The notes: generated from the letters alone by a model not told the origin. Numbered from the stretch's first letter, positions 10,781 to 50,169 are shown. The stretch is 64,000 nt of DNA from an uncultured bacterium (GCA_963720265.1 CAVRET010000002.1:520704-584703), one strand, 5' to 3'. Translations and numbers: made by a program.

Positions 10781-10990
10781 GTGTTAGCTAGAATAGTTCA
10801 AATGAGCAAGTTACTCTCAGGTCAAACACTCGCGACGATTACTGTCATTTCAGTGCTCCTTGTTCTCTGTGCATTTACTTGGCCCGCAATCAATAAAGCC
10901 AGGGCCACTTCCCATCTCAAACGGGTATTCAGCCAAGAGGCTAGCCCGCTAATCCCGGAAGTAACCGCCCTATGGAGGGGTGCATTCTAG
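10781..10990 (+). CDS. small membrane protein, possibly the N-terminal fragment of a frameshifted cassette gene (cassette 2)
   Basis: TM helix ATITVISVLLVLCAF. Its frame matches the TAG embedded in repeat R2, but the frame closes at 10990. Confidence 0.3.
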   Translation: MLARIVQMSKLLSGQTLATITVISVLLVLCAFTWPAINKARATSHLKRVFSQEASPLIPEVTALWRGAF

Positions 10991-11440: not shown

Positions 11441-11508
11441 CAGCCTGTACGATGGCCCTCCAAAGAGCTTATGCTTAAAAACGACCACCAGTTCGTTTTG
11501 TTATCATG
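11431..11508 (+). repeat. array repeat R2
   Basis: TTAGTTGCTACAGCCTGTACGATGGCCCTCCAAAGAGCTTATGCTTAAAA + hairpin ACGACCACCAGTTCGTTTT + GTTATCATGG. Confidence 0.8.
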
Positions 11509-11513
11509 GGAGC

Positions 11514-12125: not shown

Positions 12126-12147
12126 CTCCTGAACTTCGGTTCTAACA

Positions 12148-12215
12148 GAATGAACGATGGCCCTCCATAGCACTTATAATTAAATAACAGCTCTACAGAG
12201 CTGTTATTTAATTAT
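12148..12215 (+). repeat. array repeat R3 (variant downstream half)
   Basis: ACGATGGCCCTCCATAGCACTTATAATTAAATAACAGCTCTACAGAGCTGTTATTTAATTATTGG. The hairpin is AAATAACAGCTCT/AGAGCTGTTATTT. Confidence 0.7.
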
Positions 12216-12238
12216 TGGAACTCTGATAAAATACTTGC

Positions 12239-13015
12239 ATGTATATTTCGGTCGACATCGGCGGCACCAACATTCGCATCGCTGCAACCTCGAGCTTAGA
12301 AATCCCTCGATTCGAGCCTGCACCGATCCGAGCAAAAAGTACGCGCAATTACGAGCGTGACCTCAGTTTCATCATCGACGGCGCCCGCAGACTGGCCGGC
12401 AGCAAGCCGATCAGAGCAGTCGGCATCGGCATGCCCGGCAGTTTTAACGATCAAAAAACCGAGCTCGTTTCAACCAGATATACCAAGCACTGGGTTGGCC
12501 ATCCGTTTGTGGCCACGCTAAGTAATGAGCTAAACTGCCCAGTCTTTATCGAAAATGATGGCGTCGCTGCCGGCCTTGGCGAAGCCTACTACGGCAACCA
12601 CCCGAAGCAATTTTGCTATGTAGTTTGGGGCACCGGCATCGGCGGCGCGTCAATAGTGACGAATGCGGACAAAACCCAAGTTGAGGTCGCAAAGTTCGAC
12701 CACAAAACGCACTTCAAAGCCTGGGAAGACGACTGCGGCGGTCACGAACTGGAGGAGCATTATCACAAAACGCCGGCTGACCTCAGTGCCGAACAATGGC
12801 AAAAGGTGATGGGGAAGTTCGAGACTCATCTCCACATGTTCATTGAGCTTACCGGCACGAGAGCAGTGGTCTTTGGCGGCGGCATCGCCATTAGGAAGCG
12901 GCAAGAGCTTGAGGCCATGGCAACAGCTCAAACAAGTGTAACCGCCTCAAATTTTAACGAGGACAGTGGGGTATATGGCGGCCTCGGTGTAATTCGGGCT
13001 AACGTTCACTTATGA
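12239..13015 (+). CDS. ROK-family sugar kinase / transcriptional-regulator-like (BadF/BadG/BcrA/BcrD ATPase fold) (cassette 4a)
   Basis: N-terminal MYISVDIGGTNIRIA phosphate-1 motif, GIGMPG, and GTGIGG motifs of ROK/glucokinase. Confidence 0.65.
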   Translation: MYISVDIGGTNIRIAATSSLEIPRFEPAPIRAKSTRNYERDLSFIIDGARRLAGSKPIRAVGIGMPGSFNDQKTELVSTRYTKHWVGHPFVATLSNELNCPVFIENDGVAAGLGEAYYGNHPKQFCYVVWGTGIGGASIVTNADKTQVEVAKFDHKTHFKAWEDDCGGHELEEHYHKTPADLSAEQWQKVMGKFETHLHMFIELTGTRAVVFGGGIAIRKRQELEAMATAQTSVTASNFNEDSGVYGGLGVIRANVHL

Positions 13016-13620
13016 TAAACACAATGACAAAATATGTACTCAACTCAGGTGGCATCAAACACCAGCCCGAACTTAAGAAGAAGTTTCACCAGGAGCTCAT
13101 TAAAGGCTTGAGCTCCAATCCAAAATTCGTACTCTGCAATTTCGCCCAAGGCCGCGAGTATTGGGAAGTGAAATTCCAGGGCTACTCTGACACGATCACG
13201 GAAGATATGCCGGCCAACATAAAGCCCACATATGAATTAGCGCTACCAACTACGTTTACTGAGCAATGCAAAAATACTGATGTCATCTACTTCCACGGCG
13301 GTGATGACCACTTACTGCAGTTTTGGCTGAAGCAATTTGACCTAACCGAGCTATTTAAAAACAAAGTTGTCGCCACTAACTCGGCGAGCTCCGACATGCT
13401 TGCCACCCACCATTGGACATGCGATTGGCGCGCTTGCGCCGACGGACTCGCCGTACTGCCGATCAAATTCATTCCCCATTATTTATCCAATTTTGGCGAT
13501 AGCGATCCGCGCGGCCCAATAGATTGGCAAAAGGCTTATGACGAGCTAGCAGCGTACGGCGATACGTCGTTACCGATTTACGCCCTCAAAGAAGGTGAGT
13601 TTATCGTCAAGGAGCAGTAA
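13012..13620 (+). CDS. peptidase S51 (PepE)-like / class-I glutamine amidotransferase-like protein (cassette 4b)
   Basis: VIYFHGGDDHLLQFW...VVATNSASSDMLA resembles the PepE IYxxGGN...GxSAG block. ATGA overlap with the ROK gene. Confidence 0.4.
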   Translation: MINTMTKYVLNSGGIKHQPELKKKFHQELIKGLSSNPKFVLCNFAQGREYWEVKFQGYSDTITEDMPANIKPTYELALPTTFTEQCKNTDVIYFHGGDDHLLQFWLKQFDLTELFKNKVVATNSASSDMLATHHWTCDWRACADGLAVLPIKFIPHYLSNFGDSDPRGPIDWQKAYDELAAYGDTSLPIYALKEGEFIVKEQ

Positions 13621-13676
13621 TGCCTATACTTCAGCCCCGATCCGCGCAATATGTAGGTCCTGAGATCGCCTTACCT

Positions 13677-13750
13677 CAGTAGCAATAGCTTCTACGATGG
13701 CCCTCCATAGCACTTATGCTTAAAACGACTAACAAAGTCGTTTTTGTTAC
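13677..13750 (+). repeat. array repeat R4 (consensus form)
   Basis: CAGTAGCAATAGCTTCTACGATGGCCCTCCATAGCACTTATGCTTAAAACGACTAACAAAGTCGTTTTTGTTAC. Confidence 0.85.
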
Positions 13751-13783
13751 AGTAATACTTAGAACAGTATTTTATATATAACT

Positions 13784-14233
13784 TTGAGGCATATTATGGC
13801 CCACGCCGAAAGCAGCGCAGACATCAATCGAACACCCCGGGCAGTGTATGATTTTCTGGTCGATGGGCTCAATAATTCAAAATGGCGCAGTGCAGTTGTT
13901 GAAATTAGCCTAAAACACGGGTCTGTCGGTCAAGTTGGGACGGAGTATCGCCAAGTTCTCAAGGGCCCAGGCAGTCGCACCATTCATGGCGATTACCACC
14001 TGACTGCCGCCGAATCTCCATCCCGGATCGCGTTTGAAGTGACTGCGGGACCCGCCAGGCCCAGGGGCGAGTACCGGCTTGTGGCCTCTGGGGATGGTAC
14101 GAAAGTCACCTTTATTCTCGACCTTAAAACCTCTGGCTTGATGAAACTTATGGAACCAATGATTCGCCAAACCATGCAGTCAGAAGTATCAAACTTAGCT
14201 CAACTCAAGGCCATCTTAGAGCTTAGTAAATAG
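13784..14233 (+). CDS. SRPBCC (START/Bet v1/polyketide-cyclase-like) family protein (cassette 5)
   Basis: ~145 aa. A RTPRAVYDFLVDGLNNSKWRSAV N-terminus is typical of the SRPBCC ligand-binding fold. Alternative start at 13796. Confidence 0.55.
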   Translation: MRHIMAHAESSADINRTPRAVYDFLVDGLNNSKWRSAVVEISLKHGSVGQVGTEYRQVLKGPGSRTIHGDYHLTAAESPSRIAFEVTAGPARPRGEYRLVASGDGTKVTFILDLKTSGLMKLMEPMIRQTMQSEVSNLAQLKAILELSK

Positions 14234-14306
14234 CTACTGGTGGTAAAAAAGCAGTATATAAACTTTACAATGCCATGACATGAACCGTCTGCAACTGTCG
14301 TATTAT

Positions 14307-14380
14307 GGTTGCAATAGCTTCCACGATGGCCCTCCATAGCACTGATGCTTAAACGACCGACAGGTCATTTTTGTTATGAT
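14307..14380 (+). repeat. array repeat R5
   Basis: GGTTGCAATAGCTTCCACGATGGCCCTCCATAGCACTGATGCTTAAACGACCGACAGGTCATTTTTGTTATGATTGCC. Confidence 0.8.
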
Positions 14381-14386
14381 TGCCAC

Positions 14387-14794
14387 ATGCACAAAGAAGA
14401 ATTCGTCGAAGCCGTTAAAAAACTTGGCCTCAAGCCGAATGATTATATTGTTGTTGGCTCCGGTGTGTTGGTGGCTCTGGGTATCCGTACGGCCACTGAC
14501 GTTGACCTCATAGTCAGTGAGCCGATTTTTCATCAATTTGAAGAAACAGGTGAGTGGCAGCGCAAAGATTTCGATGATGGGACGCATTATCTGCTTAAAG
14601 GTAAGTATGAAATTGGCCTCGACTGGGATGGCGAGAATACTACGCCGAACCTTAAAGATTTGAAGAAGTCGGAGGTTGTAATTGATAATATTCCGTTTGT
14701 TAGTCTCGAACGCCTCCGCCACTGGAAGGCTTGGAAGAATACGCCAAAGCACCTCGCAGACATTCGTTTGATAGACGACTACCTAAGCAGGTAA
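14387..14794 (+). CDS. minimal nucleotidyltransferase (Pol-beta superfamily) domain protein (cassette 6)
   Basis: Carries the two halves of the nucleotidyltransferase signature: hG[GS] (VVGSGVLVALGIR) and DxD (TATDVDLIV). 135 aa. Confidence 0.5.
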   Translation: MHKEEFVEAVKKLGLKPNDYIVVGSGVLVALGIRTATDVDLIVSEPIFHQFEETGEWQRKDFDDGTHYLLKGKYEIGLDWDGENTTPNLKDLKKSEVVIDNIPFVSLERLRHWKAWKNTPKHLADIRLIDDYLSR

Positions 14795-14828
14795 AGCTAG
14801 CTCAACAATCAAAGGCCTTTGAGCCAAG

Positions 14829-14910
14829 ACAGTAGTTGCTACAGCCTGTACGATGGCCCTCCAGCAATAATCATTAAATAACGGCTTCACAGAGCCGTTA
14901 TTTCGTTATT
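14829..14910 (+). repeat. array repeat R6 (variant downstream half)
   Basis: CAGTAGTTGCTACAGCCTGTACGATGGCCCTCCAGCAATAATCATTAAATAACGGCTTCACAGAGCCGTTATTTCGTTATTCG. Confidence 0.75.
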
Positions 14911-15199
14911 CGTTCTTAGCCCTAACGACATGTTAGAGCTAGCTAGGTTAATGGTTATTTGAAATTACATAAGATATATGTTATAAGTGTATGTAGGCTC
15001 AACTATCCAGAGGAGTGCATGGTGCCTATTCACTCGATTGTCTTGGCTGTGAATAATCCACCCCGAGACGAGGTGGAGAGTGTCGTCAAAATGATGGCGG
15101 GCGGTGGATGGAGATCTGTGTGGTGCGCAGACCGCGCATCACTTGACCAGTTGCTGCCTCCTCCGGAGCGCCGCATTGGCTATGTGGTCGTGGGACTGT

Positions 15200-15800
15200 C
15201 TGGCTCACTCAGTGAACCACCTCGGGCTAAAGCCCGAGGCTTCCTTGGGGCGGCATGCTGGGTTTAGCTTTCCATTGATTTTCGATATACCGTTTAATCG
15301 CCTGCTCCGTGTTACGACCAACACTCTCGGCGAAGTAGCCATCCGCCCAGAAGCTATCTCCCCATAACCATTCTTCCAGTTCAGGATGCGTCTGGCGGAT
15401 AGCCCGACTTGATCCGCCCTTGAAGATTTGTACTACCTGTGACACCGAGATGCTGGGAGGTAGTTCAATAAGCATATGAATGTGGTCGGGCATCACTGCC
15501 AGCCGCTCAATCCACCAGTCGTTCATCTCTGCGCACTGAAAGAATAATCGCTTCAGGTCAGTGGCGACTTCGCCCCGCAGGATGCTTTTGCGGTACTTGG
15601 GTATCCAGACGATATGAAATTGCAGGCGATATAGCGTATGCGCACCGGAATAATATTTTTTACCTGACTTCACATACCCAGCATGCCAGACTGTCGGCGC
15701 CAGCGCCAAGGTTGACCGCCATCCGACTTAGCCTTGGTGCTACCGCCTTAAGCGGACCCATTCATCCCTGGCCTAAAGGCCCAGGGGTCTCTGGGAGGTT
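15200..15800 (-). mobile_element. IS200/IS605-family insertion sequence (tnpA only)
   Basis: Y1 HUH transposase gene flanked by two subterminal hairpins with identical loops: CCTCGGGCTAAAGCCCGAGG (15219-15239) and CCCTGGCCTAAAGGCCCAGGG (15766-15786). Boundaries are approximate. Confidence 0.7.
15227..15709 (-). CDS. tnpA: IS200/IS605 family transposase TnpA (Y1 HUH)
   Basis: HIVWIPKYRK and the HUH motif PDHIHMLIE, with the catalytic Tyr region YIENQWK. ~150 aa. Confidence 0.85.
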   Translation of the reverse strand: MALAPTVWHAGYVKSGKKYYSGAHTLYRLQFHIVWIPKYRKSILRGEVATDLKRLFFQCAEMNDWWIERLAVMPDHIHMLIELPPSISVSQVVQIFKGGSSRAIRQTHPELEEWLWGDSFWADGYFAESVGRNTEQAIKRYIENQWKAKPSMPPQGSLGL

Positions 15801-16043
15801 ACTAGAGAGGACATCGCCCCTCATATTCCAAGCGACCTACGTGACGTTGCCGCGTTTGGCCCTGGAGCGAGAAGTTTCGGAATGGTCGTCTAGCTACGAT
15901 TTTTCCGCAGATGAGAGCACTATGGTCAAAGTAATGGCTAACGACCTCGATGCCCTCTCCCGCGAGGCTCTACTCAGCCGACTCCTGAGCCCCCGAATTC
16001 ACAAATGCGCAGACCGATCGGGGTCTGCGCTCTTTCTTTCACT

Positions 16044-16130
16044 GCAGTAGCAATAGCTTCTACGATGGCCCTCCAGAGCTCTTATGCTTAAAATGACTTC
16101 CGCAAGGGAGTCATTTTGGTATCATTATCA
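16044..16130 (+). repeat. array repeat R7
   Basis: TGCAGTAGCAATAGCTTCTACGATGGCCCTCCAGAGCTCTTATGCTTAAAATGACTTCCGCAAGGGAGTCATTTTGGTATCATTATC. Confidence 0.85.
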
Positions 16131-16132
16131 AG

Positions 16133-16675
16133 ATGAATGAATTCCAAACCACCCAGCTAAATGAAATTCTGGCCCGCGACCGAGAATTGGCAAAAAAGTT
16201 CGCTGAACTTAAGGAAGTTTTTGCTCAAAAATTTGGTGAAGATAGCGACATGTACGAAAGGGCGACCGCCATCTTCCTAGCTAACGCCCTCAACGGTGCT
16301 GCAGACTATGGAATTCCGCCCCTATATTCTGTGTATTGGAAACCATATCAAACCCAGAACCTCTTGCATCACATCACTACCAAGAAAAACGTCGACTCCA
16401 TTCGCAGGCATGGTCTGGAACCACGTGACCCTTCTCCTCGTCCATGGGCCGGCATGAAGGCGGTCTATATGGCCGAACCAAATGACCCGCTTTACGATAA
16501 ATCCGAACAAGCGGTCTTGGGTCATGTGCGTAAAAAAGGCGAAAACCCTGTGTTACTACAAATCAAAACCAATAACAAACTCTACAAGTCAATTGAACCA
16601 GGCCGAACCTTCCAAGTGATTTCGGTTGACCACATCGGACCTGAGGAAATCGTTGACTACCAAGGTCCAGGCTAA
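16133..16675 (+). CDS. hypothetical protein (cassette 8)
   Basis: 180-aa ORF starting right after R7. No recognisable domain. Confidence 0.45.
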   Translation: MNEFQTTQLNEILARDRELAKKFAELKEVFAQKFGEDSDMYERATAIFLANALNGAADYGIPPLYSVYWKPYQTQNLLHHITTKKNVDSIRRHGLEPRDPSPRPWAGMKAVYMAEPNDPLYDKSEQAVLGHVRKKGENPVLLQIKTNNKLYKSIEPGRTFQVISVDHIGPEEIVDYQGPG

Positions 16676-16708
16676 TATCGTTACGTACGGCTCTTCAGCC
16701 TGACGCAG

Positions 16709-16792
16709 ACTAGTTGCGATAGCGTATACGATGGCCCTCCGTAGTACTTATGCTTTAAGACTCCATCGGGAGTCTTTTTGCTTTGCTATGAT
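16709..16792 (+). repeat. array repeat R8
   Basis: CTAGTTGCGATAGCGTATACGATGGCCCTCCGTAGTACTTATGCTTTAAGACTCCATCGGGAGTCTTTTTGCTTTGCTATGATG. Confidence 0.8.
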
Positions 16793-16794
16793 GA

Positions 16795-17448
16795 ATGCAT
16801 ATGAGCAGTCTCTCCGAATATGAGGCAAAACCCTGGCCCTATACGGTAATTGTGGGCATCATTATTTACGTTGCAATTGATATTCTCTTGGCTTTTCTAA
16901 GGCCCGATTACAGTAGCCTGCATAACGCTGAAAGCGATTATGGCAGAGGTCCCTACTCTTGGGTTATGGACATTAATTTTTTGCTACGCTGTGTGTTATC
17001 GCTAGCTTTAGTAAAAGCTATCTGGACCACCTTCCCTAAAGAAAAGCCCATTAAGAAAGCTTCTTATTGGCTCATTGCATGGGCGATTTCTTCAGGGCTG
17101 CTGGCATTCTTCGCTGACAATCCCTTCGGCTATCCCAAGCTTAAGAGTGGTTCAATACACCTACTGTTGGCTTTTGTAGTATTTATCAGTGCTTTAGTAG
17201 GAATGGTTTTGCTAACTAGACGCTTTATGATTGTCCAGGCTTGGCGCGATACCGCTGGTTTACTGGTAGGCATAACGATACTCGCAATAGTATCCCTAGT
17301 ACTAATGGGTTACGTAGGGATTAGGCCACACACATTAGGCGGCTTATATGAAAGATTTTTTCTAGGCTCGGTACTTCTATGGGAAGGGGTTGTTGCTATA
17401 AAAATTATTTCAGGTAACAATACGTCCTCTTCAGCTAGTCGCAAATAG
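16795..17448 (+). CDS. polytopic membrane protein, unknown function (cassette 9)
   Basis: ~6 predicted TM helices, 217 aa. Confidence 0.45.
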   Translation: MHMSSLSEYEAKPWPYTVIVGIIIYVAIDILLAFLRPDYSSLHNAESDYGRGPYSWVMDINFLLRCVLSLALVKAIWTTFPKEKPIKKASYWLIAWAISSGLLAFFADNPFGYPKLKSGSIHLLLAFVVFISALVGMVLLTRRFMIVQAWRDTAGLLVGITILAIVSLVLMGYVGIRPHTLGGLYERFFLGSVLLWEGVVAIKIISGNNTSSSASRK

Positions 17449-17478
17449 CAAAAAACAATCCAATTACTACCTTGTATT

Positions 17479-17512
17479 ACAGTGCGATAGCGTGCACGAT
17501 GGCACTCACACT
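17479..17512 (+). repeat. array repeat R9 (upstream half only, degenerate)
   Basis: CAGTGCGATAGCGTGCACGATGGCACTCACAC. It lacks the conserved box and hairpin. Confidence 0.5.
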
Positions 17513-17868
17513 TACCCCGCAAAAATAGTATGAAGCACCGTCATAAGTTTGGATCTTTGGCTTGGTGATATCTCGGCAATACGCTCCCTAAGCCTGGCTT
17601 TATCAACGACTCTTAGCTGGTCACAGGCGGCGCTAGACTTCCGTCCCAAAATATTCACGTCCACCCGAAAAGGCCAGCTGGTTCTGGTCGTTGTCATTGG
17701 AATGATAAGTACCGTCTTCAAGAAATCGTTCATCTCGTCCGGAGATATTACGAGGCCGGGTCTAATTTTCTGAAGCTCTGAACCTCGTGTGGGATCCGGG
17801 TCAAACCAATAAACCGAGAACCGCCTAATGTTTGTCACGTGCGAGCCATTCCTCGTAGGTCGGACCAT
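17512..17868 (-). CDS. mazF: type II toxin, MazF/PemK/Kid-family mRNA interferase
   Basis: VYWFDPDPTRGSELQKIRPGLVISPDEMN...IIPMTTT...CDQLRVVDKARL parallels MazF/Kid blocks. Start is uncertain (candidates 17835-17895). Confidence 0.65.
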   Translation of the reverse strand: MVRPTRNGSHVTNIRRFSVYWFDPDPTRGSELQKIRPGLVISPDEMNDFLKTVLIIPMTTTRTSWPFRVDVNILGRKSSAACDQLRVVDKARLRERIAEISPSQRSKLMTVLHTIFAG

Positions 17869-18142
17869 CCCAAGGCATACTGTCGAGCCCATCACTGGCT
17901 GCAGCGTCCCACGATGTCAAGTCGGTATCATCGGCCAAGGCATGGGGGTTAGACGCTAAAACTGCTTGAATTTGCTGCCTCCACCCTTGTCTTGGATTAG
18001 CCGCAGAACGAATCACTATCTCGCCTGGTCGAGCCTCCAATTCAACCGCGTCTTCCAGATTGCTCAAAGCAAGCAACGCCTTTGGCAGCCGCACTGCTTT
18101 ACTATTACCGGACGTAGTTAATCTCGTAGATATCGTTGACAT
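17825..18142 (-). CDS. mazE: type II antitoxin (AbrB/MazE-type swapped-hairpin domain)
   Basis: TTSGNSKAVRLPKALL matches the SpoVT/AbrB motif. Sits upstream of and overlaps the toxin gene. Confidence 0.6.
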   Translation of the reverse strand: MSTISTRLTTSGNSKAVRLPKALLALSNLEDAVELEARPGEIVIRSAANPRQGWRQQIQAVLASNPHALADDTDLTSWDAAASDGLDSMPWDGPTYEEWLARDKH

Positions 18143-18228
18143 ATGTACATTGTACGTACCTCACTCGATTCGTTCAATAGGGATAATGTCCGAAAGGCGC
18201 AACTTTAGGGTCGGGCTTTAGCCGGATC

Positions 18229-18312
18229 TCAGTGGCAATAGACTCCACGATGGTCCTCCATAACACTCATGCTTAAACTTCTCTACATCGAGGAGTTTTT
18301 TGTTGCTATGCT
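18229..18312 (+). repeat. array repeat R10
   Basis: CAGTGGCAATAGACTCCACGATGGTCCTCCATAACACTCATGCTTAAACTTCTCTACATCGAGGAGTTTTTTGTTGCTATGCTTTGACTATGG. Confidence 0.8.
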
Positions 18313-18897
18313 TTGACTATGGAAACCTTTAAAGACCTTCCGGTACTGCTAGCCGCTACACAATCTGACTGGAGAGCCTGGCTTGAGGAAAACCATATGC
18401 AGCTTCGGGGTATATGGCTCAAGCACGCGAAAAAGTCGTCTGGAAAGCCGTCAGTTAGCTATACGGAGGCACTGGAAGAGGCGTTGTGTTACGGCTGGAT
18501 AGATAGTCAAAAGCAAGCTTACGATGAGGACTATTTTCTGCAAAAGTTTACGCCTAGGGGCCCTAAAAGCGTGTGGTCTAAAATTAACGTTGCCAAAGCT
18601 GAAGCGCTCATTAAGTCAAGAAAAATGCAGCCAGCCGGATTGGAGACAATCAGTGCGGCCAAGCAGGATGGTAGATGGGACGCCGCCTACGACTCCTCAA
18701 GTTCGAATAAAATTCCGGAAGATTTTCAGGCGGCTTTAAATGAAAACCCTAAAGCCAAGCAGTTTTTTGAGACGCTCAATAAAGCGAACATTTACGCTTT
18801 TTCCTGGCGGATACAAACCGCTAAAAAGCCGGAAACCCGGAAAGCAAAAATCGACCAGTTTATCGAGATGCTAAATCGAGGCCAGAAACTTCATTAG
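18313..18897 (+). CDS. YdeI/OmpD-associated family (DUF1801-like) protein (cassette 11)
   Basis: 194 aa. WIDSQKQAYDEDYFLQKFTPRGPKSVWSKIN...KAKQFFETLNKANIYAFSWRIQTAKKPETR is typical of this family. Stop TAG 18895-18897 is inside repeat R11 (caTTAGcaa). Confidence 0.55.
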   Translation: MTMETFKDLPVLLAATQSDWRAWLEENHMQLRGIWLKHAKKSSGKPSVSYTEALEEALCYGWIDSQKQAYDEDYFLQKFTPRGPKSVWSKINVAKAEALIKSRKMQPAGLETISAAKQDGRWDAAYDSSSSNKIPEDFQAALNENPKAKQFFETLNKANIYAFSWRIQTAKKPETRKAKIDQFIEMLNRGQKLH

Positions 18898-18990
18898 CAA
18901 GCCCAATTTGAGTTGCGACAGCGCCTACTGTGGCCCTCCGGCAATTATCTTCAAACTAATAGCTTCCTGAAGCCATTAGTTTATTATCCA
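18893..18990 (+). repeat. array repeat R11 (variant downstream half)
   Basis: CATTAGCAAGCCCAATTTGAGTTGCGACAGCGCCTACTGTGGCCCTCCGGCAATTATCTTCAAACTAATAGCTTCCTGAAGCCATTAGTTTATTATCC. Confidence 0.7.
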
Positions 18991-19149
18991 AGCACGCCAC
19001 CCTAGTAGACGTGCAACTATCCTCGCCATATGATTATCTACATGAGCAATCGGCCTGGATTAGTAAAGCAATTCAATGAAGCTTTTTCAAAAGGCGACCG
19101 ACATCTAGCAGAGGAACTGTTGGCCCCTAACTTCACGTTCTCGGCGCCG

Positions 19150-19750
19150 CCCGATCCCTTAACCCCGCGAGGAACCCCGGAGCTTGCTCCGGGGAGGGAT
19201 AGCGCCGGCGAGCACCTGTCCGCCTCTGGTGGACACAGCAGTCTTTCATTAGCACAATGGTGGTATGGACGTTCAAATCGGTGCCCACTGTCGGTATCAG
19301 ATTCGGTACCATTTGGTATGGGGTGTCAAACTTCGACGCAAGGTACTGCTAGCCAACCGCAGCCAATACTTAAAGCGGGTGCTTGTCGAGATAGCCCAGG
19401 CTTACGACTGGGAGCTGGAAGCTGTTGGCACCGATGACGACCATGTCCATGTATTTATAGGTGCTCATCCAAAAATCGCGCCAGAGAAGTTGGTACAGAT
19501 CTTAAAAAGCAAGAGCGCACGGGCCTTGTTTGTCCAGTTTCCCGAAGTCAAACAGTTCTTGTGGGGCGGTGCGATGTGGAGTGTCGGCTATTACATTAGG
19601 ACCGTCTCTGACGGTCCGTTGGAAGGAGTTATAAAGACGTATGTTGAGCAACAAGGTAAGCACCGACCCACTCAGGCCAAATCGTACCAACTGAAGCTGG
19701 TGCCCTAAGTGACAACCACGGAGCTTGCTCCGTGGGGGTGTCTTTTTTTG
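19150..19750 (+). mobile_element. second, unrelated IS200/IS605-family insertion sequence (tnpA only)
   Basis: Subterminal hairpins CCCCGGAGCTTGCTCCGGGG (19175-19194) and CCACGGAGCTTGCTCCGTGG (19717-19736) flank a Y1 transposase gene. Boundaries are approximate. Confidence 0.7.
19265..19708 (+). CDS. tnpA: IS200/IS605 family transposase TnpA (Y1 HUH)
   Basis: YHLVWGVKLRRKVL and the HUH motif DDHVHVFIG, with a C-terminal Tyr region. Only distantly similar to the first tnpA. Confidence 0.85.
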   Translation: MDVQIGAHCRYQIRYHLVWGVKLRRKVLLANRSQYLKRVLVEIAQAYDWELEAVGTDDDHVHVFIGAHPKIAPEKLVQILKSKSARALFVQFPEVKQFLWGGAMWSVGYYIRTVSDGPLEGVIKTYVEQQGKHRPTQAKSYQLKLVP

Positions 19751-20052
19751 GACCGTGACGGGTTCTTTCAGAAATGCTGGCCTCAGGGACATAACCTTAA
19801 AAATATTGAGTATGTGCGCGTAACAGAAAATGCTGATGAAGTTATCATCACGCATGAATACGCTAAGCCAGACGGCGCCAAGGGGCGCAATACCGACGTA
19901 ATTACATTTGATGGAGATAAAATCATCCGTTTGGAAGTCTATTTTGGTTGGGACACAAAAGACTGGTAGTTGTTTTCAGAATTCCTGCCAAACAATCCTC
20001 GGAAATTTTCCCCTAAGATACGTCAGAGAACGTAAGACGCAAGGGGAACTAC

Positions 20053-43468: not shown

Positions 43469-44160
43469 ATGATAATGATCTCAGTCCCATTAAATTTGCC
43501 CTGTTTGATATGGACGGCGTGCTGTACGACCCCGGCTACCTCGAGCACGGTGCTAAAGTTGGCGTGAGCACCTGGCGGGCAATGTTTGACAGCCTTGGCA
43601 TTACGGACGAACATGCTAGGCTCAGGCGAGCGTTCATTAACGGCCACTTCCCGAGCTATATGGAATGGACTGACGAGGCCTGCCGCCTGCTCCAGCAACA
43701 TGGCCTCACCGAGAGCATATTTACGGGCGTGCTGAGCGGGCTCGTGCCCATGCCCGGCGCCTCCGAAGCTTTCGCAGAGCTAAGACATCGCGGCTACCGC
43801 ACCGCCATCATTACCGGCAGCTTCAAATATCTAGCCGACCGGGCGCAGCGCGAGCTCGGCATCGATCACGTGGTAGCCCACTGCGACCTTAGTTTCGATC
43901 CCAGCGGGCACCTCGACGGCTGGTACCTCACTCCCTGCGATTACGAGGGCAAATCCGATTACTTCCATCGTTTAACCCAGGCCGAGGGGCTGACCCCACA
44001 GCAATGCGCCTACATTGGCGACGGCGTCAACGACATCACGCTCTTTGCCGAAACCGGCTTAAGCATCGCTTTCAATTCTCACCGGCCAACCGTCCAAGCC
44101 GCCGCCGGCGTGGTAGTTGATAAGCCGGACCTGCGCGCCATTCTCAAGCACTTGCCCTAA
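43465..44160 (+). CDS. HAD-superfamily hydrolase (phosphoserine-phosphatase-like, subfamily IB)
   Basis: Motif I FDMDGVL and motif IV GDGVNDI. ATGA overlap with folD. Confidence 0.7.
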   Translation: MNDNDLSPIKFALFDMDGVLYDPGYLEHGAKVGVSTWRAMFDSLGITDEHARLRRAFINGHFPSYMEWTDEACRLLQQHGLTESIFTGVLSGLVPMPGASEAFAELRHRGYRTAIITGSFKYLADRAQRELGIDHVVAHCDLSFDPSGHLDGWYLTPCDYEGKSDYFHRLTQAEGLTPQQCAYIGDGVNDITLFAETGLSIAFNSHRPTVQAAAGVVVDKPDLRAILKHLP

Positions 44161-44279
44161 ACCAAAATAAAAAGCAGCCCCGCTAAAAGGGCTGCCGGAA
44201 ATAATTGCATTTCTAACAAGTAAGAGAGCCGGATACGGCGCCGGGAGCTTCAGCAGCTCCCGGCGCCGCGATCGGTTGT

Positions 44280-44516
44280 TCAGACACAGGCCAGTGCGGA
44301 GCACCTCGCCGGAGGAGACCTCCCTGAGGGCCACGGCCACTTGAGCACGCGGCTCATGACCCCCCGTTCTAGGGGTCGGGCTCGTCGCACAGGCCTTACC
44401 ACCCAGTCGCATTCCCACAACTGCGGCGCCTGGTGGTGCCCCGTCGGAGCACCCCATGACACGCCGCAGAACGGCAGGCTGGCGACAATAAACAGAACCA
44501 ACAGAAGCAGATCCAT
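44280..44516 (-). CDS. small secreted Cys/Trp-containing protein (putative), in a high-GC island
   Basis: AGGAAAGGA Shine-Dalgarno 6 nt upstream of ATG. N-terminal signal peptide MDLLLLVLFIVASLPFCGVSWG. 78 aa. Speculative. Confidence 0.25.
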   Translation of the reverse strand: MDLLLLVLFIVASLPFCGVSWGAPTGHHQAPQLWECDWVVRPVRRARPLERGVMSRVLKWPWPSGRSPPARCSALACV

Positions 44517-44610
44517 CGGGATCCTTTCCTGATGACTGTCATAGGTGACAGCGACGACCATCTCGGGAACCATGTCCCCTAGTCAATCGCCGCAGCCGCG
44601 CCGGAGCCGG

Positions 44611-44733
44611 TCAGGAGATGGTCGCGCTGCCGCCGGTGGCGGTCAGCTCGTCGACCTCGTACGCGCCGAAGCTGCTACTGAAAGAGTTGATGGTGGTCAG
44701 CTCCGCGGGGCTGGCCCTGGTCTGTCCGTGCAT
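44611..44733 (-). CDS. 40-aa peptide ORF (possible precursor-type peptide), in a high-GC island
   Basis: GAGGAGGA Shine-Dalgarno 3-4 nt before ATG. MHGQTRASPAELTTINSFSSSFGAYEVDELTATGGSATIS carries a Ser/Thr/Gly-rich tail. Not in the track (<60 aa). Speculative. Confidence 0.2.
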   Translation of the reverse strand: MHGQTRASPAELTTINSFSSSFGAYEVDELTATGGSATIS

Positions 44734-45000
44734 TTGTCCTCCTCGGGCTTGCGCCGTTACCAGTTGGACGTGCAGTGACGTACCTGCGTACGGGGGAAAG
44801 CCAACAAACCAATCCGTGGCATGCCTAGGATTCGCCTAGTTTCAGTCCGTGTGCTTACCTGAGTCCCGCGTTCGGCCATCAAAACATTGATAACCCGACG
44901 CGAGACTCAGAAAGCTCTCTTACTTGTTAAGGCCTACTTGCAAATTCACAAGCAGAATGCAAAAAATCTTAGAACAAAATGTAAAAAATGTCAAGGACAT

Positions 45001-45028
45001 TTGAATTAATAACAATTAATTGTATAAT
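45001..45028 (+). promoter_or_regulatory. near-consensus sigma-70 promoter
   Basis: TTGAAT-16 nt-TATAAT in an AT-rich gap ~50 nt upstream of ATG 45079. Confidence 0.5.
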
Positions 45029-45078
45029 ATACAAACAGCGCAACTCACCAACCCACACGAGAGCAAGAGGGAGCCCTT

Positions 45079-45483
45079 ATGAAGAGGGTCAACGTGTACG
45101 TGCAGGGCGCGACCATCACAGCGGTGCTGGCGTTCATTTGCGGAATCCTCGCAGGGATTCTCGGCAGCGCCCGAATTGGCGCTGCGGTCGCACTCGGCAT
45201 CCTGCTTATCGGTCTCGGGTTCATCACCTACCGAGTATCGCAGGGGCTGCCGCCACACCATCTGTTCGTGCGGTACGGCCTGCTGGTGATCGTGTGCGCC
45301 GGCCCCATGGTCGGAAGTATCGCTGGTCGTGACGTCGCGGGCTCGGTGGTCGGGGCCGGCTGCATACTGGTCATCCTGGCCGTGCCGGTTTGGGCACTCG
45401 TGCCCGGGGCTTGCCGGATCAGCCCGGCCAATCCTGCAGCCGGCCAGCAGCCCACGTACACCACTACCAGCCGGCAGGCCTAA
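45079..45483 (+). CDS. membrane protein, unknown function (high-GC island)
   Basis: 4 TM helices. GAGGGAG Shine-Dalgarno upstream. Confidence 0.45.
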   Translation: MKRVNVYVQGATITAVLAFICGILAGILGSARIGAAVALGILLIGLGFITYRVSQGLPPHHLFVRYGLLVIVCAGPMVGSIAGRDVAGSVVGAGCILVILAVPVWALVPGACRISPANPAAGQQPTYTTTSRQA

Positions 45484-45556
45484 TCAACCTGGAGCTACCG
45501 CCGGACCGTCACGTCGAGCCGGCCCTGGACACACCCCGGGGCCGGCTCATCGCATG

Positions 45557-45935
45557 TTATTGTTTGGCCAGCAGTGTCTTGACCCGCTCAGCTACCTGCT
45601 TCGGGGTCATCTCGGCTTTCACAATGTAATCATCAGCCGTCAGTTTATATACGCGCGTGGCCGTCTCGGTATCGCCCATGTTGGTCAGCACAACCACCTT
45701 AGCATCCCGGCCGCCCGGCTGCGCCCGCAGTTTCGACAGCATATCAAGCCCATTCATGTTGGGCATCATCAAATCCAGCAAAATAATGTCGGGCTTAAAG
45801 CTCTCAATGAGCTCAAGCCCTGATGTGCCGTCCGGCGCCGTGGCTACCTCGTAGCCTTCGGCCTCAAACTTGGTCCGGTACATCTGCACAATCGCCATAT
45901 CATCCTCGATAATGGCAACTCTGATCTTGGCGCTC
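45557..45935 (-). CDS. stand-alone response-regulator receiver (CheY-like)
   Basis: VAIIEDD...ILLDLMMPNMNGLDM...VVVLTN... receiver-domain motifs with conserved Asp. Confidence 0.8.
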
Positions 45936-45949
45936 ATGGCCAAAGTATA

Positions 45950-46618
45950 CTACCGCACCGGCACGTCGTATATACGATCCAGGATTTCCTGAGCCGTCAG
46001 GTGAGTGCCGTCAAACGGCTTGCCAATGCCAATCCGAAACCGCCTCCCCAGCCGCGTTTTCTGCCACTCAATGTGAGCTGGCACCACCATCGCCTGGTGC
46101 GAGTGCGCCAGCACCTCCACACCGCTCCGCGTGCGCGCCTGCCCGCGAATCGTCCGCCGGCCCTCGGGGAAAATAAATACTGTCCGCCCCATTTTAAGCT
46201 GCTTCAGGCCATATTCCAGACCACTCGGCCACTTAGGCGTTGTGCGTGCCGGGAAGCACCCCAGCGCCATAATAAGCGTGCGCAGCCCTGGCACCATCAG
46301 TCCGTTTGCTGCAAAATAGCGCAGTGTGCCCATATGCTGCCACACTCCAAACGGAAACTGTGAGCAAACAATGAATGTGTCCGCAATTGACTGGTGATTA
46401 GACGCAATAATGTAACGCGAACCATGCACTACATCGGTGGTCTCAATCTGAATCCGCCGAGACCGTCGCATGGGGACTGCCAGGACCTTACAGAGCCAAT
46501 ATGCCGCTCGCACGTTAAAATGGATAAGCCGCTCGCCCGCAGGAGTCTCGAGCAGCCAAACCCTACGCCTCTCCCGCGTCTTTTCAGGAACTCGTCCAAA
46601 ATGTTCTACTGTAAGCAC
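45950..46618 (-). CDS. plsC: 1-acyl-sn-glycerol-3-phosphate acyltransferase
   Basis: NHQSIADTF (HX4D) and FPEGRRT motifs. Confidence 0.8.
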   Translation of the reverse strand: MLTVEHFGRVPEKTRERRRVWLLETPAGERLIHFNVRAAYWLCKVLAVPMRRSRRIQIETTDVVHGSRYIIASNHQSIADTFIVCSQFPFGVWQHMGTLRYFAANGLMVPGLRTLIMALGCFPARTTPKWPSGLEYGLKQLKMGRTVFIFPEGRRTIRGQARTRSGVEVLAHSHQAMVVPAHIEWQKTRLGRRFRIGIGKPFDGTHLTAQEILDRIYDVPVR

Positions 46619-46681
46619 GTGTGTCAGCCGTTACAGAAAAATCTTGCATAAATGATACCATAATGATATAAAGAAGTCAAC

Positions 46682-47419
46682 ATGAATCTGACGATAAAAG
46701 AGCTCTCCAAAGCTGTATCCTACGCAGCGATGTTACAAAAGAACCGGGCTGACGTTCGCTCCGGCATTGTTACCGAAGCACAAGCCCTGAAAAAAGCCAA
46801 GCAACTTCATGCAAAGGTTTTTCTCTCACGCGGGTATATCACTGATGCAGATTTAACGACCGAAGGGACCATTGACACAAATGAAGACCCGTATCAGGAG
46901 CACTCGGAGTATTTTGTAGTTGAACGACTGATTGATAGTGAGTGGCGTATCCAGGCTGTCGCCCGACTCATTCATTTCCATCCTGAAAAACAAGACAGCT
47001 CGTTCCAGACGCTAGTGCACCAGGATGTGAACAAAGAAAGCCGTGAGTTAATTCAGCTTGTTGGGCTTGAAAATTGTTTTGAAGTTTCCGGGCTTGTTAA
47101 GGAAACAGGAGAGAGTACGTTAGCGGTCATGTTTCTATATCGAGAAATGTGGCAATATGCCCTCATGAATGGACAAAAATTATGGCTCATGTCATGTGAC
47201 GCTGGGCTGTACAAACGGCTAAGTTTTCTATTCGGAAATGCCTTTCAGCAAATCGGCAAAAAGTCCTTCTTTAAAGGGCACGATGTCATACCTGCGCTAC
47301 TCGACATCAGAGGCTCGATCAGCGTGTTCACTGGCAAAACCAAAAGCCGAAATCCTGCAACAAAGTTGCTGCAACACCGGCTTGCAAATTTTTTCCTTAG
47401 CGGCCTGCCAACAGAATAA
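46682..47419 (+). CDS. GNAT-fold N-acyltransferase resembling LuxI autoinducer synthases / N-acyl amino acid synthases (putative)
   Basis: Conserved-block order AKVFLSRGY...D.NED.Y...EYFVVER...IQAVARLI is similar to the LuxI/FeeM layout. By-eye call only. Confidence 0.3.
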   Translation: MNLTIKELSKAVSYAAMLQKNRADVRSGIVTEAQALKKAKQLHAKVFLSRGYITDADLTTEGTIDTNEDPYQEHSEYFVVERLIDSEWRIQAVARLIHFHPEKQDSSFQTLVHQDVNKESRELIQLVGLENCFEVSGLVKETGESTLAVMFLYREMWQYALMNGQKLWLMSCDAGLYKRLSFLFGNAFQQIGKKSFFKGHDVIPALLDIRGSISVFTGKTKSRNPATKLLQHRLANFFLSGLPTE

Positions 47420-47453
47420 GCCGACCGCTGATTAATCATGCTAGCATTAGCTT

Positions 47454-49628
47454 ATGTTAAGCATAAGGTTTATAGGGCTGACCCTTGTTGCGATCGTGTC
47501 AGTCATGATCGGCGCTATTACCCTTATAAGCAATAAAAAAGCCTACTCAAGCAGAGTGTTTGCCGCTCTCAGCAGTATTAGCGGCACCTATGTACTCGTT
47601 AATTACCTGGCTGATCACGATCAAGCTCGCGGACTATTTTGGGTACGAGGCACTTTTTTCCTAGCAACGTTTATGGTGCTTTTCTTGACACTGTTCCTAA
47701 ATCGGTTCCCGAGACGCAAGCTCCCAAGGCGCTGGGATGTCTGGCTGAGCTCAGTGGCGGTAATGATGGCCGTCTTATCGATATTGCCGGTATTTGTGCC
47801 TCGGGTAGTGCTTACGCCTGGAAGAACAAACGTTGTGCACGGTCCTCTGTATTCAGTTTTCCTTGTATTCCTTGCAGTTTACCTGGGAATAGCGATTTAC
47901 TGTGGCATTCGAGGTTTTCGAGAAGCTGAGCGTCTCGATCGTTTGCGGCTTAGATATGTGATCTTTGGCATATTCATAACGGCTTTTCTACTCATTCTGA
48001 CAAACGTTGTTCTGCCACTAATTCAGGGGCATGACACATATGCAGACCTGGGGTCATACTTTATCTTGATCTACGCCAGTTTCACCGCATACGCCATCAT
48101 CCGTCACCGCCTCTTCGATATCCGCACCGTCGTTGCTCGTTCGGTAGCCTACACCCTACTGCTCGCCACACTGGCCGCCTTCTACGTCGCCGCTGGGTTT
48201 GCCTTCACGAGCATATTTTCACCTAGCGACACGGCTTCAAAGACCCAACTCGTGCTCAATACCGCGCTCGCCCTCATTTTGGCATTTACCTTCCAGCCGC
48301 TGCGGCGGTTCTTTGAGCGGGTTACCGACCGCGTGTTTTATCGCGACCGCTACGACTCCCAAGTAGTCTTAAGCAGCTTCTCCAAAATCCTTGTCTCCGA
48401 ACTGGATCTCGACCGCATCTTAAAGCGCGCGCTGCAAGAATTATGCGAATCAGTGCACATCGAATTCGGCCAGCTTATCATCTTTAACCACGACCGTGTC
48501 TATCGTGTCGAGCACTACGGCCCGCTGCCCAAACGCCTCATGGTTGCCCCCGAGCTGGCGCGCCTGGGCCATGTCATGCTGGTGGCCGACGAGCTCGAGG
48601 GCGGCGAGCGTAAGACCCTGCTCGACCGCCACGGCATCCGGGTGGCGCTCAGCCTGCGCACCCGCGAAGAATTCGTCGGTTACCTCCTCTTGGGTGACAA
48701 ACTGTCCGGCGACATTTACTCCGGCCAGGACCTCAGGCTCCTCGAGATTATCGACAAAGAGCTCGCCGTGGCCATTCAAAACGCCAAGTCCTACGCCGAA
48801 ATCCGCGAATTTAACGTCACACTGCAAGCTCGCATTGAGCATGCCACCAACCGCCTGCGCGTCGCCAACCGTCACTTAAAGGAGCTCGACCGCGCCAAAG
48901 ACGAGTTCATTTCCATGGCCTCGCACCAGCTGCGAACCCCGCTCACTACCATCAAAGGCTACCTCTCAATGATGCTCGAAGGCGACGCCGGCCGCCTCAC
49001 CAAGCAGCAAAAGGAATTCGTGGATTACGCTTTTGGCGCCTCCGAACGTATGGTCAACCTGATTTCCGACCTGCTCAATGTTTCGCGCCTCAGCGCCGGA
49101 CGCTTCCTTATCCAAACCAAGCCCACCGATATGGTGGGGATGATCGACGAGGAAGTACACCAGCTTAAGCAGCACGCTGCCGCCAAGGGCCTCAAGCTTA
49201 TCTTCGAGCGTCCATCGCACCCTTTACCCCCGGCCCAAATCGACGACAACAAGACCCGCCAGGTCGTCATGAACTTCATCGACAACGCCATTTACTACAC
49301 CCAAACCGGCGAAGTGCGCGTTATCCTCACGCAGGACAGCGACCACGTGCGGCTCGAAGTGCACGACACCGGCATCGGTGTACCCGAAGCGGCTCGCAAA
49401 AAACTGTTCACCAAGTTTTTCCGTGCCGGCAACGCCCAGGACATCCGGCCCGACGGCACGGGCCTAGGCCTCTATCTTGCGAAACGCGTCATTCAAGACC
49501 AGGGTGGTACAATTATATTCAGTAGCGTGGAGGGTAAAGGATCGACCTTTGGGTTCGAACTACCCTTCAAGCCCCAACCTGTAATCCACAAGGACGAGCA
49601 TGACAGAGTCCACGCCCACACCCGGTAA
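47454..49628 (+). CDS. sensor histidine kinase with ~7-TM N-terminal domain, GAF-like region, HisKA and HATPase_c
   Basis: About seven hydrophobic helices in the first 270 aa. H-box MASHQLRTPLTTIKGY. N, G1 (DTGIGV), and G2 (GTGLGLYLAKR) boxes. Confidence 0.85.
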   Translation: MLSIRFIGLTLVAIVSVMIGAITLISNKKAYSSRVFAALSSISGTYVLVNYLADHDQARGLFWVRGTFFLATFMVLFLTLFLNRFPRRKLPRRWDVWLSSVAVMMAVLSILPVFVPRVVLTPGRTNVVHGPLYSVFLVFLAVYLGIAIYCGIRGFREAERLDRLRLRYVIFGIFITAFLLILTNVVLPLIQGHDTYADLGSYFILIYASFTAYAIIRHRLFDIRTVVARSVAYTLLLATLAAFYVAAGFAFTSIFSPSDTASKTQLVLNTALALILAFTFQPLRRFFERVTDRVFYRDRYDSQVVLSSFSKILVSELDLDRILKRALQELCESVHIEFGQLIIFNHDRVYRVEHYGPLPKRLMVAPELARLGHVMLVADELEGGERKTLLDRHGIRVALSLRTREEFVGYLLLGDKLSGDIYSGQDLRLLEIIDKELAVAIQNAKSYAEIREFNVTLQARIEHATNRLRVANRHLKELDRAKDEFISMASHQLRTPLTTIKGYLSMMLEGDAGRLTKQQKEFVDYAFGASERMVNLISDLLNVSRLSAGRFLIQTKPTDMVGMIDEEVHQLKQHAAAKGLKLIFERPSHPLPPAQIDDNKTRQVVMNFIDNAIYYTQTGEVRVILTQDSDHVRLEVHDTGIGVPEAARKKLFTKFFRAGNAQDIRPDGTGLGLYLAKRVIQDQGGTIIFSSVEGKGSTFGFELPFKPQPVIHKDEHDRVHAHTR

Positions 49629-50001
49629 AACCATCCTGATCGCCGAAGATGATCCGTTCATTTCGCGTATGTATCAAATCAAGCTGGAAGGCGCCGGCCT
49701 GCGCGTGATCGTGAAAAACAACGGTCGCGACGCTTATGAGGCCATCAAGGCTGAGCACCCGAACCTGGTCATGCTTGATATTAATATGCCCGAACTTTCC
49801 GGCCTCGAGGTACTGTCGGCTTTGCAAAGCGACGGCTACGACCTCGGTGCCATGCCCGTGATTGTACTCACCAATTCATCTGATATGGCCGACCGTAAAC
49901 GAGCCCAAGAGCTCGGCGCGGAATACGTGGTAAAGGCCGACCTTACGCCCCGCCAAGTGCTTGATATGATTAGCTCCAAACTCGGCGATGCTCCGGCTTG
50001 A
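49600..50001 (+). CDS. stand-alone response-regulator receiver (CheY-like)
   Basis: ILIAEDD...VMLDINMPELSGLEV...VIVLTN. Overlaps the kinase 3' end by 29 nt. Confidence 0.8.
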   Translation: MTESTPTPGKTILIAEDDPFISRMYQIKLEGAGLRVIVKNNGRDAYEAIKAEHPNLVMLDINMPELSGLEVLSALQSDGYDLGAMPVIVLTNSSDMADRKRAQELGAEYVVKADLTPRQVLDMISSKLGDAPA

Positions 50002-50169
50002 GCCCCTGATTGCTGCCGTCCTCGCGTTTGTAGCTGTATTCGTGGTTTTGCGTGCGGCCGAGTGGCTCTACCACCGCCTCCGTCACACCAAAGACTGGTC
50101 TCCGCACTGGGGATCGTGGTTGTTTGCGCTGCTGGCTGCGGCCTTTATGCTCATTAATGAGCTCGGCCG

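Follow-up and report, generated by a model that had tools for sequence, protein, structure and literature searches.

Organization of the locus

The window analysed here is a 64,000-nt stretch of DNA from an uncultured bacterium (GCA_963720265.1, CAVRET010000002.1:520704-584703), which derives from the genome of an ultrasmall bacterium of Candidatus Saccharibacteria (TM7); the four relatives found in reference genomes are all Saccharibacteria or Saccharimonadia metagenome-assembled genomes. It carries, at positions 45557-50001, a group of genes that by sequence looks like an undescribed lipid-amide signalling module. On the plus strand, a gene for a putative N-acyltransferase resembling FeeM and the N-acyl amino acid synthases (NAS), hereafter named X (46682-47419; 245 aa), is followed by the gene of a sensor kinase, HK (47454-49628; 724 aa), and by that of a stand-alone CheY-like receiver, RR2 (49600-50001; 133 aa). 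On the minus strand, a gene for a PlsC/LPLAT-type O-acyltransferase (45950-46618; 222 aa, PF01553) lies between X and the gene of another stand-alone CheY-like receiver, RR1 (45557-45943; 128 aa), which is the second gene of this PlsC-RR1 pair. The open reading frames (ORFs) that the original prediction had listed, namely RR1, X, HK and RR2, were all recovered at the same positions, and the overlap of RR2 with the 3′ end of HK was borne out (29 nt); the PlsC-type gene was absent from that account of the region.

X and HK are separated by 34 nt, the PlsC-type gene and RR1 by 6 nt, and no terminator was found between X, HK and RR2. This spacing indicates a pair of divergent operons, one comprising X, HK and RR2 (plus strand) and the other the PlsC-type gene and RR1 (minus strand). 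Both promoters presumably lie within the 63-bp AT-rich region between X and the PlsC-type gene (46619-46681), in which a promoter-like site (TTGACT-17-TATCAT with a TG motif; minus strand, 46680-46652) could be recognized by consensus match only. A terminator-like hairpin 3′ of RR2 (50096-50116, plus strand) may mark the end of the X-HK-RR2 operon, but this call is weak, since the pattern count of such hairpins was not above the shuffled expectation.

Sequence family and predicted fold of X

By itself X gave no Pfam match at E ≤ 1, and its sole match was a weak and partial one to TIGR03694, the PEP-CTERM/exosortase-associated acyltransferases (E = 0.0043; 16.5 bits against a cut-off of 111.95). 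No sequence in the PDB was related to X searched alone, and phmmer and hmmsearch runs starting from X, from a 93-sequence profile and from the family member P0078 returned no FeeM or LuxI entry. With a three-sequence profile, HMMER delimited an X family of 357 clusters at 50% identity (E ≤ 1e-3), or 78 at E ≤ 1e-30, and 93 full-length members were then searched individually. TIGR03694 was matched by 76 of the 93 (best E = 2.9e-13) and FeeM (PF21926) by 35 (best E = 1e-8), and no other curated family had matches in a substantial part of the X family. All of the TIGR03694 scores and nearly all of the FeeM scores were below the curated cut-offs; the best TIGR03694 match fell far short of what the 111.95-bit cut-off implies, whereas P0091 reached 27.8 bits with FeeM against a cut-off of 27. 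Other acyltransferase models were matched more sparsely, i.e. Acetyltransf_5 (PF13444, the Pfam family of OlsB) by 15 members other than X itself (best E = 3.8e-4), the OlsB NCBIfam models by four (E ~3e-3) and the NCBIfam model of TraI, a LuxI-type enzyme, by one (E = 0.074). None of the 93 matched Autoind_synth (PF00765) at E ≤ 0.1.

The original prediction would have been refuted by the lack of a GNAT/LuxI fold in the 245-aa protein, and structure prediction showed such a fold. The AlphaFold2 model of X, computed from the 93-sequence alignment, had a pLDDT of 94.9 and a pTM of 0.91, and a Foldseek comparison with the PDB placed LasI, MesI, BjaI, FeeM, TofI and RpaI on top, above generic GNAT proteins. 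The LuxI-type enzymes obtained the lowest E-values (1.3e-8 for LasI), yet they superposed on the model with root-mean-square deviations (rmsd) of 5-10 Å, and the best superposition was that of FeeM (chains of 2g0b; target-normalised TM-score 0.72-0.77, rmsd 3.1-3.7 Å, E = 4.4e-7). Compared to FeeM-like enzymes, X is longer at both ends, by one helix at the N-terminus and by a helical extension at the C-terminus, in place of which some family members have a membrane domain. When the X family was aligned by hhalign with validated LasI, the alignment was collinear, with a probability of only 40%, and the family invariants D69, R95 and E134 fell on D44, R70 and E101 of LasI. Equivalents of F27 and S103 are also kept (F47 and S136), so that five of the nine residues of the LasI signature are present in X; the four others are not kept (R23 is H43; W33 is I53, with Y52 one position off; D47 is Q72; R104 is G137).

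Because the family-profile matches, the modelled fold and the aligned invariant residues point the same way, X is assigned to the LuxI/FeeM structural class of enzymes, with a modelled LuxI/FeeM-type GNAT fold, and within this class its nearer relatives are the N-acyl amino acid synthases, not LuxI. The likeness to LuxI and N-acyl amino acid synthases that had been read from residue patterns was confirmed by the family profile and by the fold, though not by Pfam for X alone. Membership in the LuxI family itself was rejected, given the complete lack of PF00765 matches among the 93 members and the incomplete signature.

In one branch of the X family, with P0087, P0100 and about 30 further proteins, the C-terminus is prolonged by some 200 aa that are hydrophobic and rich in glycine. 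This extension has no Pfam match, falls into two sequence sub-types, and looks like a membrane anchor. In four members (P0009, P0039, P0079 and P0086) X is fused to a methyltransferase.

The sensor kinase HK

HK is identified by its domain profiles as a HisKA_7TM sensor histidine kinase. Its first 290 residues (47454-48323) would form a transmembrane (TM) sensor matching HisKA_7TM (PF16927) over residues 11-223 (E = 6.9e-9; 36.3 bits against a cut-off of 28.6). Hydropathy predicted nine TM segments within the first ~282 residues, with the N-terminus outside and the C-terminus inside according to the positive-inside rule, rather than the approximately seven helices in ~270 residues that had been counted before. 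The 7TMR-DISM-like identity that had been proposed for this sensor was rejected, as no Pfam match of HK to 7TMR-DISM (PF07695) was obtained at E ≤ 1. Of the cytoplasmic domains of the original prediction, the transmitter (48894-49571) was confirmed, with HisKA at residues 481-549 (E = 8e-19), HATPase_c at residues 597-706 (E = 8.5e-26), and the phospho-acceptor His491 in an H-box reading HQLRTPL. The GAF-like domain (residues 318-441; 48405-48776) was below the cut-off (E = 0.0099, 16.8 bits against 22.4; GAF_2, 13.2 against 28.6), and a comparison of the sensor profile with structures gave weak support for it (the GAF domain of 3o5y, E = 0.0027; that of DevS, ~0.04).

The best match of the sensor half of HK (residues 1-460) was PrsK (TIGR02916; E = 1.3e-4, 20.6 bits against a cut-off of 300), in a collinear alignment of residues 9-352 with profile positions 3-354. 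Among 12 ortholog sensors, PrsK was matched by four (best E = 7.8e-8), the LIC10906 membrane-protein family by five, and LuxN (NF041945) by two, one of which, that of the related locus L007, aligned over residues 4-447 with LuxN positions 19-452 (E = 9.9e-13). For LuxN, matched by orthologs only, the highest score was 47.1 bits, the cut-off being 1550. The resemblance of HK and its orthologs to PrsK and LuxN thus appears to be a remote similarity and not membership in these families. No transporter or other unrelated membrane family was present among the matches of the sensor half, which argues against a purely compositional artefact.

Receivers and PlsC-type enzyme

RR1 and RR2 are, from their domain content, single-domain CheY-like response regulators. 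Response_reg was the only domain in both (RR1, residues 9-118, E = 5.8e-26; RR2, residues 12-124, E = 6.6e-21), with no output domain, and the canonical residues are present (D14/D15, D57, T87 and K109 in RR1; D17/D18, D60, T91 and K112 in RR2), in keeping with the earlier view that there is one receiver-only regulator on each strand. Of all proteins encoded at the locus RR1 is conserved best, with 54-92% identity across loci. RR2 follows HK in L001, L003, L006, L007, L008 and L014, and is absent in L009-L011.

The PlsC-type protein matches PF01553 (E = 1.6e-12) and has intact H75-x4-D and FPEGRR(150) motifs. Fifteen lineages have its gene beside X. In L020-L023 no such gene lies within 7 kb, and these are exactly the lineages whose X carries the ~200-aa C-terminal glycine-rich hydrophobic extension. 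The extension and an adjacent PlsC-type gene were mutually exclusive in the sampled loci (4 and 15 lineages, respectively). In a Logan assembly that holds the same DNA as 45950-46618 (L019:8212-8595), gene calling had shortened the PlsC-type protein to 127 aa and placed a spurious gene of 75 aa opposite to it; the complete ORF of 222 aa, with a GTG start, is backed by full-length homology to L003 and L013 (57-80% identity).

Conservation of the gene neighbourhood

The neighbourhood was compared by tblastn tabulation across 23 loci representing about 19 distinct lineages, six of the loci having been contributed by a metagenome scan with seven sequences. In all 16 lineages with readable sequence downstream of X, the first kinase gene to follow on that strand encoded a HisKA_7TM kinase. 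It lies directly 3′ of X in the window and in L010, L011, L012, L015, L020, L021 and L023, after one S-adenosylmethionine (SAM) methyltransferase gene in L001, L003, L006, L008, L009 and L013, and after one ThiF-family gene in L007 and L022; neither a methyltransferase nor a ThiF gene is present at the window locus. One to three stand-alone receivers were always encoded divergently, upstream of X. The adjacency of X, kinase and receivers is kept down to 25-33% identity of X, and the joint occurrence of the genes that had been suggested to form a system was found in every related locus examined. What varied across loci were the flanks (insertions of Mur ligase, racemase and HAD genes), the PlsC-type gene, RR2, and the number of kinase copies and of receivers. 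The methyltransferase tracks X, being located 3′ of it in most of the loci that carry one, 5′ of it in L015, and fused to it in some cases. The universal core is made up of X, the 7TM kinase and stand-alone receivers, and the PlsC-type enzyme, the methyltransferase and ThiF are accessories.

The two ThiF genes (L007:8762-9643 and L022:4745-5626, both plus strand; PF00899, E = 7.6e-40) share 37% identity. Their location in the methyltransferase slot in two independent lineages suggests an alternative tailoring chemistry for the same scaffold. L010 encodes two tandem HisKA_7TM kinases (7691-9865 and 9862-12054), and in L020-L023 two or three stand-alone receivers are arranged in tandem upstream of X.

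Co-divergence of X with the transmembrane sensor

Evolutionary rates divide the locus into two parts. Identities to the window proteins were 27-50% for X, 25-60% for the 7TM sensor and 24-80% for the PlsC-type enzyme, and 34-88% for the GAF region, 57-83% for the catalytic domain, 54-92% for RR1 and 60-74% for RR2. In correlations of distance matrices, X agreed best with the 7TM sensor (r = 0.79), whereas the sensor correlated with its own GAF region at r = 0.63 and with its own catalytic domain at r = 0.52; the GAF region, catalytic domain, RR1 and RR2 co-varied at 0.80-0.94. In partial Mantel tests controlling for FolD, RR1, the catalytic domain or PlsC, the correlation between X and the 7TM sensor remained at r = 0.65-0.73 (p ≤ 0.0013), while that between X and RR1 fell to 0.09 and that between X and PlsC was 0.32 (p = 0.053).

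X and the 7TM segment also differ from their surroundings in base composition. In the window, the GC content at third codon positions (GC3) was 0.48 in X and 0.54-0.55 in the 7TM segment, compared to 0.62-0.76 in the neighbours. More generally, GC3 values of 0.42-0.62 were obtained for X, the methyltransferase and the 7TM segment of the kinase in the window (46682-48323), L001, L003, L007, L013 and L015, against 0.63-0.82 for the flanks and the rest of the kinase gene. That X and the sensor had been acquired recently by horizontal transfer was considered for this dip and rejected, since low GC3 recurs in all high-GC relatives and is thus a property of the module and not of a transfer specific to the window. 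Weak codon selection or fast evolution are possible causes.

Comparison with known systems

Two kinds of known system bear on the pairing of an acyltransferase with a multi-TM kinase. In Vibrio harveyi, the LuxM/LuxN system follows the same logic, with the synthase gene directly upstream of the gene of a multi-TM receptor kinase that senses N-acyl-homoserine lactones. LuxN has nine TM segments with the N-terminus outside, as predicted for HK, and its model is matched by ortholog sensors of HK; the fold of LuxI and five of the signature residues recur in X. LuxM, on the other hand, is not a GNAT/LuxI-fold enzyme, and LuxN is a hybrid kinase feeding LuxU and LuxO, whereas HK has no receiver and is paired with stand-alone receivers. 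The second comparison is with the NAS systems of Proteobacteria, which, like the present locus, include a multi-TM kinase, here the GAF kinase PrsK. FeeM gives the best superposition on X, and FeeM and TIGR03694 the family-profile matches; PrsK shares with HK the order of multi-TM sensor, GAF (in HK a putative domain), HisKA and HATPase_c, in addition to the collinear sensor alignment. There are differences, in that PrsR is a sigma-54 activator and RR1 and RR2 have no output domain, and in that the host of X is a monoderm-like bacterium of the candidate phyla radiation (CPR) without fatty-acid synthesis. The TIGR03694 synthases are associated with PEP-CTERM/exosortase systems. No exosortase or PEP-CTERM family was found among the genes within 10 kb of X, nor in the related loci.

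The neighbouring O-acyltransferase invites a further comparison, since a GNAT-type N-acyltransferase beside a PlsC-type O-acyltransferase is also seen in OlsB/OlsA and GlsB/GlsA. The methyltransferase near X in the relatives recalls OlsG. The similarity of X to OlsB and PF13444 is weak, however, the genes are divergent instead of co-oriented, the PlsC-type gene is dispensable in four lineages, and the setting is that of a two-component system.

Full-text searches of the literature returned no description of the X-HK locus, nor of an NAS-kinase pairing in Saccharibacteria or Patescibacteria. NAS/LuxI-fold enzymes, HisKA_7TM kinases, CheY-like receivers and the logic of a synthase beside its receptor kinase, as in LuxM/LuxN, are all known kinds. 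What is new is that X and HK are paired, that the pairing is conserved lineage-wide within a phylum of the CPR, that accessory genes of putative tailoring function go with it, and that there is a parallel with NAS and PrsK.

Proposed function and alternative explanations

The explanation that we favour, with somewhat less than even confidence, is that the product of X is an N-acyl amide lipid, coupled to HK and probably sensed by it. The analysis shows to which fold and family X belongs, which domains the kinase and receivers have, that the genes are spaced as in an operon and stay adjacent in relatives, and that X diverges together with the sensor; the substrate, the product, and the role of the product as the HK ligand we infer as follows. 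X, as an N-acyltransferase of FeeM/NAS type, would N-acylate an amino acid or a comparable small amine, with acyl-acyl carrier protein or acyl-CoA as donor of the fatty acyl group. Since Saccharibacteria cannot make fatty acids (PMC6031116, PMC11665869), this group would ultimately come from the host. The amphiphilic amide would enter the membrane, where it could be perceived by the nine-TM domain of the presumably co-transcribed HK, a domain remotely similar to those of LuxN and PrsK. As the regulators are receiver-only, HK would then signal through them by protein-protein contacts or phosphorelay, and not by direct DNA binding. Tailoring of the product in the relatives would fall to the methyltransferase or to the adenylating enzyme of ThiF type, either of which might mask a carboxylate; one may speculate that both enzymes act on the carboxylate of an N-acyl amino acid, yielding a neutral molecule resembling an N-acyl-homoserine lactone (AHL). 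The PlsC-type enzyme would be a lineage-specific accessory. The original idea of an acyl-signal synthase coupled to a 7TM sensor is supported with the corrections given above, having passed on both points, fold and gene conservation, that could have refuted it; it gains from the likeness of the ortholog sensors to PrsK and LuxN and from the co-divergence of X and sensor, while the PlsC-type gene opens an alternative based on membrane lipids. Also in favour are the family identity of X, the tight spacing from X to RR2, the constant succession of X and HK amid variable flanks, the methyltransferase near or fused to X, the anchor-like extension of about 30 family members, and the precedent that NAS genes and PrsK both belong to PEP-CTERM systems.

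A number of observations weigh against this explanation. Searched alone, X is below every curated cut-off, TIGR03694 included, and has no Pfam match. The similarities to LuxN and PrsK are likewise far under the family cut-offs and concern TM-rich sequence, in which E-values can be optimistic, and LuxN is matched by only two of the 12 orthologs and not by HK of the window. The Mantel result comes from 8-11 loci with non-independent distances, and shared saturation of fast-evolving proteins could inflate it; moreover, the PlsC-type enzyme also correlates with the 7TM sensor (partial r = 0.61). FolD is located nearby in most of the loci long enough to show it, a case of long-range Saccharibacteria synteny, and because such synteny is kept, part of the X-HK adjacency could be inherited and not selected. 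Finally, a two-step aminolipid pathway would account no less well for the constant PlsC partner of 15 lineages.

This last point leads to the main rival, which we consider rather unlikely, namely an aminolipid pathway like that of OlsB/OlsA or GlsB/GlsA. X would N-acylate an amino acid, giving a lyso-aminolipid to which the PlsC-type enzyme adds the second acyl chain, the methyltransferase, where present, would methylate the head group like OlsG, and HK and the receivers would monitor or adjust the state of the membrane, with no diffusible signal involved. Apart from the adjoining PF01553 enzyme with its intact HX4D and FPEGRR motifs, and its co-variation with the TM sensor, this pathway would be in line with the matches of X-family members to Acetyltransf_5 (15 of 93) and to the OlsB models (4 of 93) and with the apparent membrane anchoring of many X homologs; two-step synthesis by the products of adjacent olsB and olsA genes is established (PMC11631085). 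However, L020-L023, which have no PlsC-type gene within 7 kb, keep X, HK and receivers together, and this weakens OlsB/OlsA as a universal function of the locus. In addition, the X family is much nearer to the NAS models (76 and 35 of 93 members) than to OlsB (E ~3e-3), and X and the PlsC-type gene are on opposite strands with a weak partial correlation. The PlsC-type enzyme could also serve housekeeping re-acylation of lysolipids, as the organism is thought to live on host lysolipids (PMC11665869).

A quite improbable alternative is that X and HK are neighbours by inherited synteny without any coupling, X serving to make a surfactant or an antibiotic-like N-acyl amino acid, or to detoxify or store host fatty acids. 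It would fit this alternative that many lineages have FolD and further housekeeping genes close by, and that the receivers and the cytoplasmic half of HK form a tight evolutionary block independently of X. Against it, the flanks have been rearranged repeatedly (Mur ligase, racemase, HAD, PlsC, ThiF and methyltransferase genes, receiver duplications) whereas the order and strand from X to HK were never broken, only putative tailoring genes being inserted, and the co-divergence of X with the sensor exceeds that of the sensor with its own catalytic domain (0.79 vs 0.52). It is very unlikely that X is a strongly divergent LuxI-type AHL synthase, using SAM and an acyl donor, with HK as a LuxN-like AHL receptor: the lowest Foldseek E-values (LasI, MesI, BjaI), the retained equivalents of LasI F27, D44, R70, E101 and S103, and the LuxN match of one ortholog sensor are outweighed by the lack of PF00765 matches, the single TraI match, the loss of LasI R23, W33, D47 and R104, and the better superposition of FeeM. 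Least likely of all, X would be a GNAT protein acyltransferase modifying the receivers or HK, as in CheY acetylation, without making any small molecule; its GNAT fold, the generic GNAT acetyltransferases lower in the Foldseek list and its constant proximity to CheY-like proteins would allow this, but its best fold and profile matches are to the LuxI/FeeM/NAS group, which uses acyl chains, many of its homologs have an apparent membrane anchor, and it does not co-vary with RR1 (partial r = 0.09).

If the favoured explanation, an N-acyl amide made by X and sensed by HK, holds, it could extend to a signalling pair present throughout the Saccharibacteria, in which the NAS-like enzyme makes an N-acyl amide from host acyl chains, capped in some lineages by the methyltransferase or ThiF, and a dedicated 9-TM kinase reads it and drives CheY-like receivers; we advance this wider proposal only tentatively. 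Any acyl amide made by these bacteria must carry host-derived acyl chains, which would tie the signal to the symbiosis, and an epibiont could in this way gauge how dense its own population is, or how well its host is supplied with lipid. The Patescibacteria (CPR) are a large and poorly understood group, for which the perception of hosts or peers by epibionts is essentially a blank, and a conserved module of synthase and receptor kinase would be a concrete entry point into CPR signalling. The proposal could also be relevant beyond this group. NAS genes are linked to PEP-CTERM systems in three reports (PMC7293339 and PMC11072679, which cite Craig 2011, and PMC4897644), and PrsK is a component of PEP-CTERM systems, its stimulus having been termed obscure since 2006 (PMC1569441). 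The occurrence of remote NAS and PrsK homologs side by side suggests a ligand class for PrsK-type and HisKA_7TM sensors; by homology, N-acyl amino acids would be the stimulus of PrsK and of other HisKA_7TM kinases in PEP-CTERM systems.

Other features of the window

Two further regions of the window were noted. The interval of about 1.4 kb between a HAD hydrolase gene and RR1 (44160-45557) has an uneven GC content (0.48-0.68), and its sole notable ORF encodes a hydrophobic protein of 134 aa with no Pfam match (45079-45483, plus strand); the content of the matching interval varies among relatives. Farther away, immediately beyond a tRNA gene (10068-10141), begins a block of about 10 kb (10100-20000) with a lower GC content, 0.47-0.50 compared to ~0.56-0.60. 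A check of its ORFs of ≥180 aa for an integrase gave none. Its products are a uridine-kinase-like protein, an ROK kinase, a DUF998 protein and an OmdA-domain protein, with an SDR at its edge.

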